64,000 bases of DNA from Gammaproteobacteria bacterium (GCA_026399315.1 JAPLRF010000033.1:16260-80259); one strand, 5' to 3'. Numbered from the stretch's first letter, positions 2,476-56,165 are shown. Numbers and translations are program-made. The notes: generated from the sequence alone by a model not told the origin.

Positions 2476-3666
2476 TTATAAAAAAGGCAATAAGAGTAAT
2501 GCCGGCAATCCGATAATCGCCGTGAAAATATAAAAATCAATCCACCCGAAATGCTGCACAATCACAGCAGAAACAGGGCCGATAAAAATTCTACTGAGCG
2601 CCGCCACCGCTGAAAATAGCGCGTATTGTGTTGCGGTATAACGCAAATCACACAAGCCCATCAAATAAACAATCAACGCAACACTTGCTAATGCGCCGCA
2701 AAAATATTCTCCAAAAATCGCAACGCCCATTAAAAGAATATTTTTTCCGACAAAGGCTAACCACGCGTATAATAAATTAGATGACAGTTGCAACAATCCA
2801 AAAATCCACAATGCACGAAAAACACCTAAATAAGGCATTAACAATCCACCAACCACACTGCCCAGCACTGCACCCACAATGCCGGCCATTTTACTGATGG
2901 CGCCAATTTGAATTAAACTGAATCCCATGCCTCGAATTAAAAATGTGGTGTTTAAGGATAAAGCCATCGCATCGCACATTTTATAAAGCATAATAAAAAC
3001 GAGAATTAATACGGCATTTTTTTTCGAAAAAAAGGCGCGCATCGGGGCAATCATCGCTTCTTTCAAACTACTGAGTTCTGATTTTTCAATTTTTGGATTT
3101 GGCGAAATGACAGTAATCCACATTAAGCCTAAAAAACAGGCCGCCATTATTAAATACATCGCGCGCCAACTGATCAGCGCCGCAATAATTAGCGCAAGCG
3201 CACCCGACACCATCATCGCCAATCGATAAGCAACCATATAAACCGAGGTGCCAACCCCCCGCTCTTCTATCGTTAATAATTCCGTACGATAAGCATCAAA
3301 TGCCGTATCTTGTGTTGATGAAAAAAATGCGACAAGCAAAGCTAAAAAAGCCAAGAATAAAGGCGTTTTGGCAGGATGTGAAAATGCCATTATTGCAAAT
3401 GTAGCGGCCAACGCCAACTGCATGAGTAAAATCCAGCTGCGTCGACGGCCATACTTCAAGGGCGTCCAGCGATCCAAAAAAGGCGCCCATAAAAATTTGT
3501 ACGCATAGGGCTGCCCCACTAAGGTCAACCAGCCAATCGTTACCAAGCTTACGCCGGACACGGTGTACCATGCTTGTAATGTCGACCCGATTAATCCAAG
3601 CGGCAGTCCAGATGAAAACCCCAAAAATAAAATAGTGAACATGTGGCGGCTAAAGTACTTTTTCAT
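2476..3666 (-). CDS. ampG: AmpG-type muropeptide MFS permease
   Basis: FLGFSSGLPLGLIGSTLQAWYTVSGVSLVTIGWLTLVGQPYAYKFLWAPFLDRW parallels the E. coli AmpG N-terminus, and the protein is polytopic and hydrophobic throughout. I chose the start at the MKKYF ATG (3664-3666). The 18 extra codons in the ORF track run into a repeat element. Confidence 0.8.
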   Translation of the reverse strand: MKKYFSRHMFTILFLGFSSGLPLGLIGSTLQAWYTVSGVSLVTIGWLTLVGQPYAYKFLWAPFLDRWTPLKYGRRRSWILLMQLALAATFAIMAFSHPAKTPLFLAFLALLVAFFSSTQDTAFDAYRTELLTIEERGVGTSVYMVAYRLAMMVSGALALIIAALISWRAMYLIMAACFLGLMWITVISPNPKIEKSELSSLKEAMIAPMRAFFSKKNAVLILVFIMLYKMCDAMALSLNTTFLIRGMGFSLIQIGAISKMAGIVGAVLGSVVGGLLMPYLGVFRALWIFGLLQLSSNLLYAWLAFVGKNILLMGVAIFGEYFCGALASVALIVYLMGLCDLRYTATQYALFSAVAALSRIFIGPVSAVIVQHFGWIDFYIFTAIIGLPALLLLPFL

Positions 3667-3903: not shown

Positions 3904-5304
3904 ATGGAAATTAGCGTATTCGATTTGTTTTCAATCGGCATTGGTCCTTCCAGCTCGCATACGGTTGGACCGATGCGTGCCGCTTATGATTTTATAAAAC
4001 AACATTCTGCGGACGAATTAAATGAAATCACGCGCATTACTGCACGATTACACGGCTCACTTGCTTTTACGGGAATTGGCCACGGCACCAACAAAGCAAT
4101 CTTAATGGGATTTTGTGGCGAACTTCCAGAATCTATTGATCCTTTTACCATCGATTCACGCGTTGAAACAATTTGCGAATCTAAAAAAATAAATATATTC
4201 GGAAAAAATAATATTAATTTCAATAACGAAAAAAATATTGTATTTGATTACGAAAACTTATTGCCACACCATTCTAATGGCATGACCTTCACATCATTTG
4301 ATCAGAATGAAAAAATAATCCATCAAGCCATTTATTATTCTGTTGGCGGCGGATTTATTGTGTCAGAAAAACAGCTGCAAAATCCCGCTGAAATTGCATC
4401 ACACACATTACCCTATCAATTTGATTCTGCCGCTGAATTATTAATACATTGTAAAAAATTAAATTGCACTATCGCTGAATTAATGATGAAAAATGAATTA
4501 TCCTGGCGTGATGAAAAAACGATAAAAGAAAAATTAATGCGGATTGCTGATACGATGGCTGAGAGCATTAACAATGGCTGTATTACGGCAGAAACTATTT
4601 TACCAGGCGGATTAAAAGTAAAACGGCGTGCACCCAAGTTATACGAGAAATTAATGAAGGCAGGTGATGCCAAAATGCAAGGCATCTTGTTAATGGAATG
4701 GTTGGATTTATATGCCATTGCCGTGAATGAGGAAAATGCCGCGGGTCATCGCATTGTGACAGCGCCAACGAATGGCGCTGCAGGTATTATTCCATCTGTA
4801 TTAGAGTATTTAAAAGTATTTTATTTAAAAAGCGCGGAAGCGGAGGCTTGCTTGCAAACCGCGCAAAACAAAATTTGTGATTTTTTATTAACCGCCGCAG
4901 CCATTGGTATTTTATACAAAAAAAACGCCTCGATTTCAGGTGCGGAAATGGGTTGTCAGGGGGAGGTCGGCGTTGCCTGCTCAATGGCAGCAGCAGCATT
5001 AACTGCTGTTTTAGGCGGCAGCATTTACCAAGTTGAAAATGCCGCTGAAATTGGAATGGAACATAACTTAGGCCTAACTTGTGATCCAGTTAAAGGACTA
5101 GTACAGATTCCTTGCATCGAAAGAAATGCCATGGGCGCCGTCAAGGCGGTTAATGCAACACAATTGGCGCTTGCTGGAGATGGCGAGCATAAAGTGTCAC
5201 TCGACATGGTTATTAACACGATGCGAGAAATTGGTAATAATATGAGTACAAAATACAAAGAAACTTCTTTGGGTGGTTTGGCTGTCAATGTGATTGAGTG
5301 TTGA
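3904..5304 (+). CDS. sdaA: L-serine dehydratase (iron-sulfur, single-chain)
   Basis: [70 protein letters not shown] and [21 protein letters not shown] are collinear with E. coli SdaA. Confidence 0.9.
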
Positions 5305-29075: not shown

Positions 29076-29864
29076 CTACCGGGCGCGTTTCTGAACTATT
29101 TGAAATAAACTTCTGAAGTTGTCGCTTGTTGCAGTTGCCACTTCTTCAATGGAAATATTTTTTATCTCAGCGATTTTTTCAGCGACGTAACGAACGTATT
29201 TTGGTTCGTTTTGTTTTCCACGGAAAGGCATGGGCGCTAAATACGGAGAATCCGTTTCAATTAATATTTTATCAAGCGGGACATAACGCGCAACTTCCAC
29301 TAATTCTTTTGCGTTTTTAAAAGTAATAATGCCAGAAAATGAAATATAAAAATTTAAATCCAGCGATGCCTTTGCCATTTCCAAACTTTCAGTGAAGCAA
29401 TGCATCACGCCACCCACCTCATTGGCGTTTTCATCACGCATTATTTTCAAGGTATCTTCACTTGCATTGCGCGTATGGACAATTAAAGGTTTTTTTGTTA
29501 ATTTCGCAGCGCTAATGTGATCGCGGAAACGTTGTCGCATCACTTCTAATTTATCGGAATTATAATGATAATCTAAACCGGTTTCACCGATGGCAACCAC
29601 TTTCGGGTGTTTTGCTAACTCACATAAGGTTTCAACGGATAAATCATCTTCTTCTTTTTCGCTGGGGTGTGAACCGACAGAGCAATAAACGTTTTCGTAT
29701 TTTGAAGCGATTTCAGCGCATTTTTTCGCGGAAATCATATCGACGGCAACGCAGAGCATTGCGTTTACCCCGGCTTGTTTTGTTTCGAGCATGAAGCGGT
29801 CGAAATTGTTGTCATAAGAGGGTAAATCAAGCATGTAGGGGTGGCAGTGTGAATCGATGAACAT
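29076..29864 (-). CDS. ycfH: TatD-family metal-dependent hydrolase (YcfH-like)
   Basis: MFIDSHCH..., GETGLDYHY, HTR.A and DSPYLAP motifs, with the conserved position downstream of holB. The last ~6 codons lie in a GC-rich repeat. Confidence 0.85.
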   Translation of the reverse strand: MFIDSHCHPYMLDLPSYDNNFDRFMLETKQAGVNAMLCVAVDMISAKKCAEIASKYENVYCSVGSHPSEKEEDDLSVETLCELAKHPKVVAIGETGLDYHYNSDKLEVMRQRFRDHISAAKLTKKPLIVHTRNASEDTLKIMRDENANEVGGVMHCFTESLEMAKASLDLNFYISFSGIITFKNAKELVEVARYVPLDKILIETDSPYLAPMPFRGKQNEPKYVRYVAEKIAEIKNISIEEVATATSDNFRSLFQIVQKRAR

Positions 29865-29994
29865 TTTAATTTCTCTTGGTTAGGAATACATACATTTCAA
29901 AATGTATGTTTTTATAAAATTCTGCGCCACCCGCTAACGCGGGGGCTTCCGTGCTAATTCACCAGCTCATTGATGAATATTTCTTCATGCAATA

Positions 29995-31056
29995 TTACGC
30001 ACAAGCTACTGAGCGCGTTTCTGAGCTGAATTTTATAAAAATACTTTCTAGGCATAACTGGGTGTTTAAATTAATCCCTCTGGATAAAAATAATTTTTTT
30101 TCATTAAGATGATCAATACATTCCTGCAATTTTATGGGTAATATTTTTTCTGCAATTTTTTCAAGCAGCGGGAAAATATCGTTATTTAAAATATAAGTTA
30201 TTTCTACTTTATTGTGCATACGAGAAATATCGACGCACAGCAAGGTGAGTATCTCCAATATTAAATTAATATCTTGTTTTAACCAAGCGGCTATTGGCGC
30301 AATGGGATTTGCGCGATGTAAAATAATTTGTTCAAGGTGATTTGCAATTTGGTCGCGCAATTGTAAATAATGGTTGTCGGATAGTATTTTTACTTTTAAA
30401 GGTGCATTGCCCGATAAACGCAACAAAATTGCACTGTCTTTTTCAGTGGGCATTTCTTTTGTCAGCCAAGTTAAAGCACTTTTTTCATCAGCAGAAAATA
30501 ATATTTTTTGGCAACGGCTATAAATTGTTGCTGGCAATGGGTGTTCTTGGTTGTCGATTAAAAAAATAATAACCTTACCGCTGGGTTCTTCAAGTGTTTT
30601 TAACAAGGCATTCGCCGCTTGCACTGGCATAGAATCAGCAGGTGAAATAATAATAACTTGATATCCACCTGCGTGGGATGTTCTGGAGATTTTTTCAGTG
30701 AGTTCGCGGATTTGATCTATTTTAATTATTTTGGATTTTTCTTCGGGACTAATCATTAAAAAATCGGGGTGGGTGTTTGCGGAGAATTGTTTGCAGGATT
30801 TACAGGTGTTGCAGGACTGCGCGGTCGCTATCGCTTCCGCTTCCATACGCTTCGTAGAAAGTTCGTTCAGAGAATACTGCGCGGTTGCTGTCCCTGCATT
30901 TTGAGAACACAGTAAAAAACCCGCAAATTCATGCGCAAAATCAGTTTTTCCTAAACCTGATACACCCGATAATAAATAAGCATGCGCTAAACGATTTTGC
31001 AAAAATGCACTATGCAATAAATTAAATTGTTTTTGCTGCCAAGGATAAATCATCAT
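29995..31056 (-). CDS. holB: DNA polymerase III delta' subunit
   Basis: YPWQ start, HAYLL.G..GLGK, the Cys cluster C..SCNTCKSC, ANALLKTLEEP and SRCQ motifs. It overlaps tmk by 4 nt. It carries an in-frame repeat insertion (30811-30897). Confidence 0.8.
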   Translation of the reverse strand: MMIYPWQQKQFNLLHSAFLQNRLAHAYLLSGVSGLGKTDFAHEFAGFLLCSQNAGTATAQYSLNELSTKRMEAEAIATAQSCNTCKSCKQFSANTHPDFLMISPEEKSKIIKIDQIRELTEKISRTSHAGGYQVIIISPADSMPVQAANALLKTLEEPSGKVIIFLIDNQEHPLPATIYSRCQKILFSADEKSALTWLTKEMPTEKDSAILLRLSGNAPLKVKILSDNHYLQLRDQIANHLEQIILHRANPIAPIAAWLKQDINLILEILTLLCVDISRMHNKVEITYILNNDIFPLLEKIAEKILPIKLQECIDHLNEKKLFLSRGINLNTQLCLESIFIKFSSETRSVACA

Positions 31057-32827: not shown

Positions 32828-32937
32828 GCGAGGGCTACCGCCCCCGCTTCTGTGCTATCCACGCGCTCGGAGCTTTGAGGCTCAACGCTTTGTTATGATT
32901 CCACTCGCTAACGCTCGGGGCTCTGAGGCTCGGCGCT
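32828..32937. repeat. GC-rich short-repeat cluster in the fabF 3' flank (families B and A)
   Basis: GCGAGGGCTACCGCCCCCGCTTCTGTGCT is followed by two tandem units related to CCACTCGCTAACGCTCGGGGCTCTGAGGCTCG. The same motifs occur at 35266-35294, 44351-44386, 46366-46404, 56049-56165 and 57393-57477. Confidence 0.8.
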
Positions 32938-35237: not shown

Positions 35238-35294
35238 GGGTTCTCCAATTCTGTGCTGTTTAAAATTCCACTCGCTGACGCTCGGGGCTGTGAG

Positions 35295-36230
35295 TTAAAG
35301 ATTAATAATATCTTTTGAAATTCGTTTATTTAGTCCCGCCAATACTTTTCCTGGCCCGCATTCATAAAAGGTGTTGACGCCATTGTTCATCATATACTGA
35401 ATGGTTTCGACCCAACGCACTGGTGAAATTAATTGTCGGACCAAAGCGTCGCGAATATCAGTGGAAGTGTGGTGAATTTTTACATCGGCATTTTGAATAA
35501 CAGAAATTGCAGGGGATTTAATTTCAATGGATTTTAATTTTTCTGCCATGGCATCCGCAGCACTTTGCATGAGGGCACAGTGTGATGGCACACTGACAGG
35601 GATTTTTTTTGCTATTTTCGCGCCTTTTTCGTCTGCTAATTGAATGGCTTTTTCAACGGCAGATGTATTGCCTGCTATTACTATTTGGCCGATGGAATTA
35701 TAATTGGCAGGACTGACTGCGCGGTCGCTATCGCTTCCGCTTCCATTCACTCTAGATAATTCATCGCTTATGTATTGACTGGCTTGCTTGCAAATTTCTT
35801 CAACGACGTGATCTTCTAATCCCACAATCGCGGCCATTGCGCCCGCCCCCGGCAAAACAGCTTCTTGCATAAACTTTCCACGCGCAGAAACCAATGAAAT
35901 AGCATCATTAAAATGAATGGCCTCAGCACAAACCAGCGCAGCATACTCACCCAAACTGTGACCCGCTAAAAATGTTGGTTTTTCATCGTGTGATAATTTC
36001 CAACATTCGTATACGGCGATATCTGCCGCTAACAATGCCGGCTGTGTAAATTCAGTTTGATCTAATTTTTCTGCGGGGCCATTTTGCGTTAATTCCCATA
36101 AATCGTAATGCAAAATATCGGATGCTTGATTAAATAATTTTTTTACGCAAGCATGTTGCACAGCTAATTCAGATAACATGCCGATGGATTGCGAACCCTG
36201 ACCAGGAAAGATAAGTGCGAAGTGCGTCAT
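35295..36230 (-). CDS. fabD: Malonyl-CoA-ACP transacylase
   Basis: FPGQGSQ, GHSLGEY and VSVPSHC motifs. It contains a ~16-codon GC-rich insertion (about 35717-35764). Confidence 0.9.
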   Translation of the reverse strand: MTHFALIFPGQGSQSIGMLSELAVQHACVKKLFNQASDILHYDLWELTQNGPAEKLDQTEFTQPALLAADIAVYECWKLSHDEKPTFLAGHSLGEYAALVCAEAIHFNDAISLVSARGKFMQEAVLPGAGAMAAIVGLEDHVVEEICKQASQYISDELSRVNGSGSDSDRAVSPANYNSIGQIVIAGNTSAVEKAIQLADEKGAKIAKKIPVSVPSHCALMQSAADAMAEKLKSIEIKSPAISVIQNADVKIHHTSTDIRDALVRQLISPVRWVETIQYMMNNGVNTFYECGPGKVLAGLNKRISKDIINL

Positions 36231-40102: not shown

Positions 40103-40242
40103 GATAAATTGGCTTTGGATGATTATTCAGAGGTGTTTTTGAAACACGCCGTAAACCCATCCATGGGGTCTCGTCATTGGCCGTCCGGGCCAATGACGGT
40201 TTCAAAAACACCTCTTTCATAATCATCCACGCCAAATTTATC
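40103..40242. repeat. 140-bp palindromic element, 'family F'
   Basis: ~43-bp inverted termini: GATAAATTGGCTTTGGATGATTATTCAGAGGTGTTTTTGAAAC versus its complement at the other end. The core ACGCCGTAAACCCATCCATGG...ATTGGC...GCCAAT is related to internal modules of the family E MITEs. Confidence 0.75.
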
Positions 40243-44288: not shown

Positions 44289-44401
44289 AAAATCACCTAC
44301 CCAATATTAAATTGAAAAAATCCTGGTTTAATTCTCCTGACTTTTTTAGAATTCCACTTGCTAACGCTCGGGGCTCTGAGGCTCGATCATTCCATTCGAA
44401 T

Positions 44402-51518: not shown

Positions 51519-53915
51519 TTATGCCCTCAAAGTTGCGTTCAACTCCCGTTCAAGCGCGATGACAACACCATGAATTATCGCGTTTATTTCCTCATCTACT
51601 AGAGTGCGTGATGGATCTTGAAACGTCAAGCCCAAAGCGATACTTTTTTTGCCCAATTCTATATTTTTACCTTGATAGACATCGAAAATCATCACATCCT
51701 GAAGCTGAGAACCCGCCTGCTGCTTAACTAAAGTGCTTATTGCAGCGGCCGAAGTTGCCTCATCAACCACAATCGCCAAATCACGGCGAACCGATGGAAA
51801 ACGTGAAAAAGTTTCATAATGCGGCACTGAGATTCGCTTAATCGCTTCCAAATCGAGCTCGCAAACGATGACCGGTTGGCGAATATCGAAGTGATTGAGG
51901 ATCTGCGGATGCACTTCGCCCAGATAGCCGATGAGCTTGCCGTCGCGCATGAGCGAACACGAACGCCCCGGATGCAATGCAGTATTAACAAGGCTTTCAT
52001 TAGCATGCATGGAAACGGAAGCGACAGCGACCGTGTGATCGAAAAGAAGCGCTTGAATATCCGCTTTTAAATCATAAAAATCCACCGCGCGCTTTTTCTC
52101 ACCCCACTGTTCTGACACTACGCTACCGGTAATAACCATCGCCAACTTCGGCGTTTGCGCATCACCAGAAAAACACAAACCCGTTTCAAATAAACGCACA
52201 CGTTCACATTGATGGCGCAAATTCAGTTGAACTGCTTGTAATAAACCTGGCAATAAACTATCGCGCATCACAGACATATCTTGTGATAAAGGATTTTTCA
52301 AGGTAATTGGTTTTGCCGCCGGTGAAAACAAAGAAAACAATTCCGGAGAAATAAAACTATACGTAATGGCTTCATGATAATCGCGATCGATTAAAAAGTG
52401 GCGGATTTTTTTGTCACTTAATTTTCCTTCTGCGTGCGATTTCATGCTTAAATTCGCCACCATTTCCAAGGAAGGAATCGTATCGTATCCGGTCATTCGC
52501 GCTAATTCTTCGATTAAATCAACCGGCAAACTCACGTCAAAACGAAAACTGGGCGGAATCACTTCCCAGCCATTTTCCAGCGATTCTACAATGAAACCCA
52601 GTGATTCTAAAATTCGCACGACATGATTATCTGCGATAACAATCCCCACTGTTCGCTGAATTTGATCGCGCGCTAAAAATATTGCTTCACGCCTTGGTAA
52701 ATTATTTTCTGAAACCACTTCAATTATTTCTTCTACCGTACCACCCGCAATCTCTAAAATTAATTGTGTCGCGCGCTCAATTGCCTCACGCGGCAAACTA
52801 AAATCGACACCGCGCTCGAACCGATGTGAACCATCGCTCGTAATACTGTGTCTTCTTTTACTTAAGCAAACTGTTTTCGGCAAGAAAAAACACGCCTCTA
52901 GAAATATATCTTTTGTATTTGTTGTTACGCTCGAATCAACGCCGCCCATCGCACCCGCTAATGCCAGCGGCTTTTCTTCATCTGCAATAATTAAATCGTT
53001 TTCTGTTAATGTAATGAATTGCTCGTCTAATAATTTTATTTTTTCATTTGATTTGGCGCGACGTACAATAATGTTATTTTTAATGGTTGATAAATCGAAA
53101 GCATGCATCGGCTGACCCAATTCCAACATGACATAATTTGTAATATCGACAACAGGATTAATTAAGCGCGTGTTGGCGCGTTGCAAGGCATGTTGCATAT
53201 AAGACGGTGTTTGCAGTGTATTATTCACATGACGAATAACGCGACCGACGTAACGTGGACAGTCTTCTGGGGCTTGTATCGAGATTGACAATGAAGATTG
53301 GGAGCTTGTGATTGGTGTTATTTTTACTGATTCCTGATGTTTTATCGCTGATCCCTGTATCGCTGCTGCCAAATCACGTGCAACACCGCGAATACTCAAT
53401 GCATCGCCGCGATTCGGCGTGATATCCACATCAATAATGCAATCATTTGATTTGAAATAATCATTAAAATCATCGCCGATTTTTGCATCAGCGGGCAATT
53501 CTATAATGCCATCAATCAATGATTTCCCCATTTCCAATTGCAATTCTTTTGCGGAGCACAACATGCCTTGCGATAATTCACCGCGCAACTTAGCTTCTTT
53601 AATTTTAAAATCACCCGGTAAAACTGCACCAACGGTTGCAACAGCCACCTTAATGCCTGCGCGCGCATTGGGTGCACCACAAACGATTTTCAATAATTCT
53701 TTTTCGCCAACATTCACCTCACAGCAAGATAATTTGTCGGCATTGGGATGCTGAGCACGCGTGACGATTTCACCAATGACAACACCGGAAAATTTTCCAG
53801 CAACAGGCGTAATGGCATCGACCGTCAAGCCAAGCATCGCCATTTGTTCGGTTAATTGTTCTGTTGTTAAGGCAGGGTTCACCCACTGACGTAACCATTG
53901 TTCGCTGAATTTCAT
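51519..53915 (-). CDS. pheT: Phenylalanine-tRNA ligase beta subunit
   Basis: [14 protein letters not shown] start (ATG 53913-53915), with tRNA-binding, B3/4, B5 and FDX-ACB regions in order. ~798 aa. Confidence 0.9.
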
Positions 53916-54139
53916 CGGTGAATTCCTCATTTATTTAAGCGCCCATCATACCCCGATATTTTACAAAAACAAAACCGTTCGTACTGTGAAAATGCGAATT
54001 TAACGATGAACTATCAGAAGTGGGAGCGGTAGGTATAAAATTAAAGTCATCTTTTCCTTTCGGAAATTTATATCGTTTAAATTGTCAAGAGCCATAAAAT
54101 ACGTTATATCTGTACAGATGCTTTACAAGACACATAGGA

Positions 54140-54718: not shown

Positions 54719-54899
54719 GTATCTACTCCAAACTCAGAGGGTAACTGAAATAGTTGCTGTTAGGGGTATCAGGGATCAGCTGTCTGGGATCGGTGTTCGC
54801 ATTCTGACACCGACCCCCGATCTCAGATCCCGGATCCCGGATCACTTTTCAGTTGGTGTATTGCTATTTCCGTCACCCTCTAATTTAGAGCGGATACAT
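54719..54899. repeat. Family D element, full-length copy D3 (~180 bp)
   Basis: Termini are GTATCTACTCCAAA ... TTTAGAGCGGATAC (inverted). The interior matches both halves of copy D1. The right end abuts the pheS stop codon. Confidence 0.75.
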
Positions 54900-55966
54900 T
54901 AAAACTGCTCAAGAAAGCGTAAATCATTTTCAAACATAACGCGCAAATCATTAATACCATAATGCAGCATGGCCAAACGTTCTAAACCAATACCAAAGGC
55001 AAAACCCGTATATTTTTTTGAGTCAATCCCAACATTTTCTAAAACATTAGGATGAACCATGCCACAACCCAGCACTTCAAGCCAGCGGATGTGCGCACCA
55101 CAAGCTTGTTGCACTACGGCAGATTCATTACCCGTTCGCGCGCAGGCTTCCGCCCCCGCTTCCGTTCTATTTGATTTCCACTCAATATCCACTTCCGCAG
55201 ACGGTTCTGTAAACGGAAAATAACCAGGGCGAAAACGCAAAGGAATTTCTTTTTCAAAAAAGGCGTTTAGGAAATTCTGCAACAAACTTTTTAAATGCGC
55301 AAAATTACAATGCTCATCCACTACCAATCCTTCTAATTGATGAAACATGGGCGTGTGTGTTGCGTCATAATCTCGGCGATATACCCTACCCGGCGTGATT
55401 ATTCTAATCGGTGGCTTTTGATTTTTCATGACGCGAATCTGCACGGGCGATGTATGCGTTCGCAATAATTTTCCATCCGGGAAATAAAATGTGTCTTGTG
55501 ATTCCTTTGCAGGATGATGATCAACAAAATTCAATGCGGAAAAATTATGATAATCGTCTTCAATTTCTGGGCCTTCTTCTACAGAAAAACCCATTTGCGC
55601 GAATAATTCAATAACACGTTCACGCACGCGCGTGACTGGATGCAAACATCCTGTCGATTGTTGCCCACGACCCGGCAAAGTAACATCAATTTTTTCCGAT
55701 GATAATTTTTCGTTTAATTCAGCAGTTTTAAATTGATTGTCTTGCGCATTTAATAAATCTTGAATTTGGGTTTTAGCATCATTAATTAACTGCCCTACTT
55801 TCGGACGTTCATCAGCGCTCAGCTGACCAAGCTGCTTCATTAATTCAGTGAGGTCGCTTTTTTTACCTAAATATTTAATACGGAGGTCTTGAATATCGGC
55901 TACGTTTTTAGCGGAGGCGATGAGGGATTTTGCTTCGTTGATGATGATGTTTAATTTATTCTGCAT
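54899..55966 (-). CDS. pheS: Phenylalanine-tRNA ligase alpha subunit
   Basis: Collinear with E. coli PheS ([57 protein letters not shown]). The start is set at the second ATG (55964-55966), which has GGAG 6 nt upstream. It carries an in-frame GC-rich insertion. Confidence 0.9.
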
Positions 55967-55978
55967 CACAGACTCCAT

Positions 55979-56005: not shown

Positions 56006-56048
56006 GAATTAAATACTCAGGCGAATAGGAGTGTGTGCATTGGTTATT

Positions 56049-56165
56049 TTCCACTCGCTAATGCTCGGGGCGCTGAGGCTCGGGGCTCTGAGCGCTGAGG
56101 TTAGTTTCCACTCGCTGACGCTCGGGGCTCTGAGGGCTCGGGGCGCTGAGGCACGAGCGGTGAGC
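56049..56165. repeat. Tandem array of GC-rich family A repeats in the rplT 3' flank
   Basis: Two ~55-nt units: CCACTCGCTAATGCTCGGGGCGCTGAGGCTCGGGGCTCTGAGCGCTGAGG and CCACTCGCTGACGCTCGGGGCTCTGAGGGCTCGGGGCGCTGAGG. Confidence 0.85.

Follow-up and report, generated by a model that had tools for sequence, protein, structure and literature searches.

A probable small palindromic repeat, similar in behavior to REP and RPE sequences, is translated in different reading frames within essential genes of a Coxiellaceae-like bacterium

The repetitive elements RPE-1 to RPE-10 include in-frame insertions in housekeeping genes of Rickettsia (Ogata et al. 2000, via PMC10969869 and PMC3733652), with a length of about 150 bp (PMC10969869). 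Intragenic REPs, encoding 20–30 residues, have been described in several species, where many of them lie in genes for replication and repair (Di Nocera et al. 2013, PMC3733652). Further systems of reference are the REP/REPIN sequences (Bertels and Rainey 2011, PMC3116915) and the elements QMITE1 and QMITE2 of Coxiella burnetii, which measure 150–400 bp and carry terminal inverted repeats and direct repeats of 2–11 nt (Wachter et al. 2018, PMC5896051). Here, we analyze a sequence shared by fabD, holB, and pheT, which probably belongs, as a single unit, to a small family of dispersed repeats, REP/REPIN- and RPE-like, in a Coxiellaceae-like host.

The stretch of DNA analyzed, termed the window, comprises 64,000 nucleotides of a gammaproteobacterium whose named relatives are Coxiellaceae MAGs. 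The genes fabD and holB belong to a conserved minus-strand cluster, plsX-fabH-fabD-fabG-(acpP)-fabF-mltG-tmk-holB-tatD. A nucleotide profile of the unit (nhmmer) detects exactly three copies in the 64-kb window, all of them in essential genes. The relevant features are as follows:
29995..31056, minus strand: holB, DNA polymerase III delta' subunit, 353 aa (open reading frame; PDB 1a5t, E 6.6e-35)
30817..30900, minus strand: holB insert region, codons N53-Q80, between Cys50 and Cys82 of the zinc module
30817..30852, minus strand, sense: repeat unit copy 2, in holB (nhmmer E 2.8e-10), read as M-E-A-E-A-I-A-T-A
30876..30894, minus strand: partial second copy of the 3' end of the unit, 19 nt, GGGACAGCAACCGCGCAGT (family D9, spacing 60)
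35295..36230, minus strand: fabD, malonyl-CoA:ACP transacylase, 311 aa (open reading frame; PF00698 relatives; PDB FabD entries with E down to 3.8e-98)
35718..35777, minus strand: fabD insert region, codons Q152-A171, net +16 codons, translated QYISDELSRVNGSGSDSDRA (from codon-level comparison with the filled site of L001 and the empty site of L003)
35717..35755, minus strand, sense: repeat unit copy 1, in fabD (nhmmer E 2.2e-12), read as N-G-S-G-S-D-S-D-R
51519..53930, minus strand: pheT, phenylalanyl-tRNA synthetase beta subunit, 803 aa (open reading frame; PheT Pfam architecture in homologues)
52000..52038, plus strand, antisense to pheT: repeat unit copy 3, in pheT (nhmmer E 1.7e-10; blastn 23/25 at 52009-52033)

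A preliminary description of this locus had claimed that one GC-rich core occurs in both fabD and holB and is translated in two different frames. The coordinates and sequences are exactly as it gave them: fabD 35707-35745 and holB 30811-30845 match except for a 4-nt ACTG indel, and an ungapped block is identical at 32/32 nt between 35715-35746 in fabD and 30815-30846 in holB. The two copies have the same orientation and are 4.9 kb apart. Codon-level comparison also bears out both frames, the core being read as MEAEAIATAQ in holB (...KRMEAEAIATAQSC) and as NGSGSDSDRA in fabD (...RVNGSGSDSDRAVSPA). The limits of the core had been drawn too widely, as the trailing codons GTC AGT CCT GCC ("GCAGGAC") code for V-S-P-A, which is also found in insert-free orthologues, and therefore belong to the host and not to the element. 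The element proper ends at or before ...GACCGCGCAGT in fabD, and the ACTG indel, described as a duplication, is positioned at the junction between element and host.

The 6-nt periodicity of the core (GGAAGC GGAAGC GATAGC GACCGC) and the low complexity of its peptides could recall chance similarity or a convergence of Gly/Ser- or Ala-rich linkers. Such an origin, or an artefact of MAG assembly, is hardly credible. From the base composition of the 64-kb window, the expected number of exact 32-nt repeat pairs is only 3.7e-10. When the window is searched for a 27-nt core with as many as three mismatches allowed, only the fabD and holB sites match, and none of 100 dinucleotide-preserving shuffles gives a match. 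The peptides differ from gene to gene, so that convergence at the protein level cannot yield identical DNA. Finally, the orthologous fabD insert recurs, in frame, in L001 and L002, which were assembled independently from two other samples, and this refutes an assembly artefact.

The preliminary description had also proposed, by comparison with the Escherichia coli protein, that this FabD is about 16 residues longer at the repeat. Indeed, HMMER alignments with the FabD structures of Coxiella burnetii (PDB 3tqe, E 3.8e-98) and Vibrio cholerae (PDB 3hjv) place a 16-residue gap exactly there, opposite FabD residues ~152–170, and the 16 residues are absent from E. coli FabD as well. Of 30 close homologues that were aligned, the majority have ...CKQAS-xxG-(I/V)VSPANYNS at this site, and extra residues are present in only four of them: the window protein, P0002, P0003, and P0010. 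P0002, the nearest FabD relative (83% identity), carries the insert, while P0003, with a shortened NGSGSAR, and P0010 have shortened or diverged forms. Judged from these sequences, the insert is a lineage-specific addition and not a conserved feature of FabD, contrary to what would have refuted the preliminary description. The empty fabD site of L003 reads GCG TCG AGT AAC GGT ATC GTT AGC CCT GCA AAT; the filled site of the window reads GCC AGT CAA TAC ATA AGC GAT GAA TTA TCT AGA GTG AAT GGA AGC in its first part and continues as GGA AGC GAT AGC GAC CGC GCA GTC AGT CCT GCC AAT.

The AlphaFold2 model of FabD has a mean pLDDT of 93.9, with a sole internal dip, to ~80, at the insert. In the model, helix 140–161 is extended and followed by a loop (residues 162–166), a short helix (167–170), and then the strand 172–179. 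When superimposed onto E. coli FabD (PDB 1MLA), the model gives TM scores of 0.91/0.93 and an rmsd of 1.2 Å, and the fold is thus predicted to be retained despite the insert. In the homologue alignment, the catalytic motifs are invariant: GHSLGE (Ser92), Arg117, and SVPSHC (His217).

HolB carries its insert in the zinc module Cys-x(n)-Cys-x2-Cys-x2-Cys, where the first spacer is 31 residues long versus eight in L003, in P0243-245, and in E. coli. The alignment to 1a5t is split into two pieces, with query residues 56–79 left unmatched. The insert is bracketed by direct repeats, formed by the full unit and the partial copy 60 nt upstream of it, and this bracket is kept in the insert of the relative L032. 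L032 and L033 (~52% protein identity) carry holB inserts in the same position and phase, and L031 has a decayed one; in a neighbor-joining tree, such inserts are missing from lineages placed among insert carriers. An inverted repeat at the holB insert, GCAGGAC...GTCCCTGC, was considered as terminal inverted repeats and rejected: its fold is no better than that of shuffles (z −0.6) and the corresponding bases in fabD are host codons.

On the 5' side of the core, the two inserts show a weak similarity of 13/25 nt, and this part is read in the same phase in both genes, as QYISDELS in fabD and QYSLNELS in holB. The core differs in phase because of a 2-nt indel immediately 5' of ATGGAAG, where holB has two nucleotides more than the family consensus.

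The third copy, 16 kb away, stands in place of a variable loop that precedes the conserved ALHPG of PheT, and adds four residues net. None of 20 PheT relatives has the unit, not even the closest (P0122, from the L030 locus). Compared by eye on alignment rows, the pheT copy and the intergenic copy of L020 are identical at 33/40 positions. The initial statement that the element occurs in at least two frames in two essential genes is correct for both and is extended by the antisense pheT copy to three of the six reading modes: GSGSDSDR in fabD, MEAEAIATA in holB, and antisense TVAVASVSM, including AVAVASVS, in pheT. The 28-nt core is free of stop codons in 5/6 frames in its GATAGC variant and in 6/6 frames in its GACAGC variant. 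The phases in use give small, flexible peptides rich in Gly/Ser/Asp, Glu/Ala/Thr, or Ala/Val/Ser; the unused readings would include WKRKRQRPR and RGRYRFRFH.

Alignment of eleven or twelve copies defines a unit of ~40 nt with the consensus TAGAATGAATGGAAGYGGAAGCGAYAGCGACCRCG. Within it lies an imperfect hairpin of 20 nt, GYGG-AA-GC-GAYA-GC-GA-CCRC, with six pairs, for which 95.6% of the alignment cells are paired. Compensatory double changes are observed in three of these six pairs (GC>AU once, CG>UA twice), the hairpin score is reached by 0/500 shuffles, and the signal collapses in slid controls. With a small sample of related copies, these data are supportive, not conclusive, of a real hairpin. 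The intragenic copies, which are single units with no partner arm, fold no better than shuffles (z −0.6, −1.3, and +0.4).

Copies are also found outside genes in relatives of the host. L003, in which both the fabD and holB sites are empty, has four intergenic units in 20.9 kb: two adjacent inverted units at 5089-5173, forming a hairpin of −23.9 kcal/mol (z −7.8), and inverted units ~55 nt apart at 18804-18935, between holB and tatD (z −3.3). Such inverted intergenic pairs fold into palindromes of 80–140 nt. L033 has a further unit between holB and tatD, and single intergenic units are present in the Coxiellaceae-type MAG contigs L020, between sufD and sufS, and L023. The three units in 64 kb of the window compare with none in the 22.5-kb L030 and 8.6-kb L029 loci. 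Of 19 matches to GGAARNGGAAGCGANAGCGACC in 185,579 species genomes, only L020 and L023 are relevant; the other 17 are unrelated and stem from a gene conserved in Massilia and related high-GC Burkholderiales or from chance. Among three matches to GGAAGYGGAAGCGAYAGCGACC in JGI metagenomes, only the L020 contig is relevant.

In L020, the intergenic unit (3400-3440, minus strand) lies just upstream of sufS and forms a nine-codon open reading frame, ATG GAA GCG GAA GCG ACA GCG ACC GCG TAA (MEAEATATA-stop), which ends 4 nt before the sufS start. Its assignment as a leader peptide was dropped, the stop codon not being conserved in other copies.

With REP/REPIN sequences, which come in tens to hundreds of copies per genome together with a cognate single-copy RAYT (Y1 transposase) gene, the unit shares an imperfect palindrome of 20–40 nt with compensatory changes in the stem, an arrangement in inverted pairs with a spacer in L003 (L020 and L023 have single units), and an occasional location in genes, replication genes in particular. 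It differs in that the GTAG/CGTC tag is lacking, the alignment showing GGAA 5' and G(C/T) 3' of the stem, with a conserved TAG ~12 nt upstream that stands in (T/C)TAG and not in GTAG. The stem of the unit is also short and interrupted (4 + 2 bp), the observed copy density is low (3 in 64 kb), and a Pfam scan of ten small or unassigned open reading frames of the 64-kb window revealed neither a transposase nor a RAYT. At gathering score, Rfam finds two tRNAs only in the window, and a permissive Rfam scan of the L003 palindrome gives only miRNA hairpins at noise level.

The likeness to RPEs lies in behavior: a family dispersed between and inside genes, where it is in frame, leaves the open reading frames intact, occupies surface loops, and decays by indels, in a host clade rich in intracellular bacteria. 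The host here is a Coxiellaceae-like gammaproteobacterium, however, and the family is at best an analogue in behavior. In addition, the unit is ~40 nt long, with 48–69 nt inserted, versus ~150 bp for RPEs; it lacks their long palindrome (~100–150 bp), as the intragenic copies are single units and only the L003 intergenic pairs fold strongly (z −7.8); and a single unit is read here in three phases and orientations. QMITEs are likewise small, non-autonomous repeats of the Coxiella lineage, some of which overlap annotated open reading frames. Identity with them was rejected on size and architecture as described, the unit having 40–80 nt and no consistent flanking duplication. Nor do the direct repeats around the holB insert suggest a MITE, since they are part of the unit itself. 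We class the sequence among the small palindromic repeats that colonize coding sequence, outside the families that have been named.

The fabD and holB inserts are common to the window and to the sister genome (L001/L002), and are thus older than that split. Between the window and L001, nucleotide identity is ~80% for fabD and 76% for holB, with ~60% at third codon positions, and the changes since the split include indels of 6, 9, 18, and 24 nt and substitutions that freely alter residues. The orthologous fabD inserts of the two genomes differ at 5/32 core positions and at 6/51 positions overall. The fabD and holB copies of the window both end in ...ACCGCGCAGT, and those of L001 end in ...ACCGCGTGGT in both genes. 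As copies within a genome are more alike than the same insert in the sister genome, gene conversion is suggested; this argument has as its basis 32 nt and two shared substitutions, and the chance of full 32-nt identity under independent evolution since the split would be at most ~0.88^32 = 0.02. We infer that copies within a genome exchange by gene conversion, or that they are renewed by copying from a master.

Such exchange might be the whole story, fabD and holB being related by a local ectopic conversion or templated repair with neither a repeat family nor mobility. The 32-nt identity of two genes 4.9 kb apart in a shared orientation agrees with this, as does the within-genome homogenization seen in L001. 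We regard it as improbable, given the antisense unit in pheT, 16 kb away, and the intergenic units of L003, L020, L023, and L033, which contradict a local event as the sole explanation. A fabD-holB conversion probably did take place, acting on a pre-existing family.

Like those of holB, the fabD inserts are patchy in distribution, yet always in one site and one phase, here in four lineages. A single old insertion, inherited vertically and then lost or replaced by another allele in places, would account for this pattern as well as repeated entry or ongoing mobility would. It is conceivable, though we think it unlikely, that the inserts are old, vertically inherited and possibly useful loops, and that selection on a hairpin of RNA or DNA in the mRNA, such as a protein-binding or processing site, and not selfish spread, preserves their nucleotide identity. 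This would agree with the same-site, same-phase holB inserts down to ~52% protein identity, the same-phase fabD inserts of four lineages, the compensatory changes in the hairpin, and the conservation of third codon positions in the fabD insert (14/17 versus 0.60 gene-wide). It agrees poorly with the decay of the inserts through free residue changes (G>E, D>A, R>S, and a 6-nt deletion; the L031 insert is almost unrecognizable), with their absence from a close relative with intact genes (L003), with peptides that are wholly different between genes, and with intragenic copies that have no significant fold.

The dispersed repeat family keeps our preference, and its history may have been as follows. 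Copies would have entered essential genes, and purifying selection would have spared only insertions that keep the frame, are located in loops, and are benign. The in-gene copies do keep the frame and occupy surface or variable-length loops; together with the open frames and the benign peptides, these locations fit a survival of harmless insertions only. Later indels of 2, 4, 6, 9, and 24 nt would have reshaped the copies, and gene conversion may be ongoing among them within each genome, which would explain why the fabD and holB copies are identical. The likeliest agent of spread would be a trans-acting transposase acting on single-stranded DNA hairpins (RAYT or IS200-IS605 type) or microhomology-mediated template switching. 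For the intragenic copies, no target-site duplication or terminal inverted repeat is definable.

AGTC..CTGCAA is common to the 3' flanks of three copies, those in fabD and holB and one intergenic copy of L003, and CCTGCA is present in both empty sites of L003 (two sites in one relative). CCTGCA was considered as a target site; the idea comes from these two empty sites, and in holB the hexamer is specific to the L003 lineage. A more active scenario, which we hold to be unlikely, is that of a site- and phase-selective element, or of the substrate of a hairpin-recognizing enzyme, that repeatedly enters the same permissive loops (the small-domain turn of fabD and the zinc-module loop of holB), perhaps guided by microhomology through the 3' tail AGTC..CTGCAA, and that is kept uniform in each genome, coding sequence included. 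If true, it would be a gammaproteobacterial counterpart of the RPEs with a definable insertion mechanism.

Besides this probable family, the window and its relatives contain other repeats in coding sequence. PheS of the window has ~16 extra residues compared with the solved PheS 4p71, which correspond to an in-frame copy of D2/D4, a GC-rich hairpin repeat. The features concerned are as follows:
54899-55978, minus strand: pheS
55122-55170: second repeat family D2/D4 (e.g. TCGCGCGCAGGCTTCCGCCCCCGCTTCCGT), in frame in pheS
32888-32932, 35255-35299, 44341-44385, 56038-56139, and 57405-57482: D1 copies

The reverse complement of D2/D4 shows a GGAAGC hexamer periodicity and ~65% identity with the unit of fabD, holB, and pheT. 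The genes holB and tatD run at their 3' ends into D2 copies, at 29995-30028 and 29065-29098, which provide their last codons and stop (...SSETRSVACA-stop in holB and ...VQKRAR-stop in tatD); the C-termini of both proteins differ from those of relatives. The D1 family (TTCCACTCGCTAACGCTCGGGGCTCTGAG) has eight intergenic copies in the window, and three tandem in-frame D1 copies, (EPRALVSENKPLVTS)x3, add 44 residues to pheT of L030 (10001-12541). The peptide SLRE(S/P)TPF(Y/F)KGG occurs both in the P0126 insert, in the same PheT loop, and in an N-terminal extension of the FabD protein P0009, which suggests yet another translated repeat family in the clade. In-frame repeats in genes are thus a general phenomenon in this Coxiellaceae-like clade.

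Larger repeats are present in the window as well. A 124-nt inverted repeat, 85% complementary with a 9-nt spacer, lies at 28751-29007 between tatD and a 2833-aa open reading frame, and arms related to it are found at 29916-29972. The 2833-aa frame itself (20073-28574, minus strand), which adjoins tatD, is unusually large for its position; its L031 counterpart has 2948 aa with SecA_DEAD and P-loop_SecA Pfam matches. A repeat of ~260 nt occurs twice (11967-12311 and 59674-59929) with 92–97% identity, and also at 40136-40235. Inverted partial copies accompany it, and the GATC-rich family D5/D10/D11 (ACCGATCTCTGATCTCAGATCCCCGAT) lies on its flanks.

Within 64 kb, insertions of this sort affect no fewer than four essential genes: fabD, holB, and pheT by the unit described here, and pheS by the second family. 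The clearest prior case of in-frame gene colonization is that of Rickettsia, in addition to scattered intragenic REPs, and the present one is from an unrelated, uncultured Coxiellaceae-like lineage. It extends a phenomenon of the RPE type to a new lineage and is a clean and instructive case, not a new principle or a new kind of element. In practice, such inserts inflate protein length, give rise to spurious segments of low complexity, and can lead the alignment of orthologues and the annotation of MAGs astray. They also offer a natural experiment on the tolerance of protein loops, on the "pre-adaptation" of repeats that are free of stop codons and encode small residues, and on gene conversion in coding sequence.
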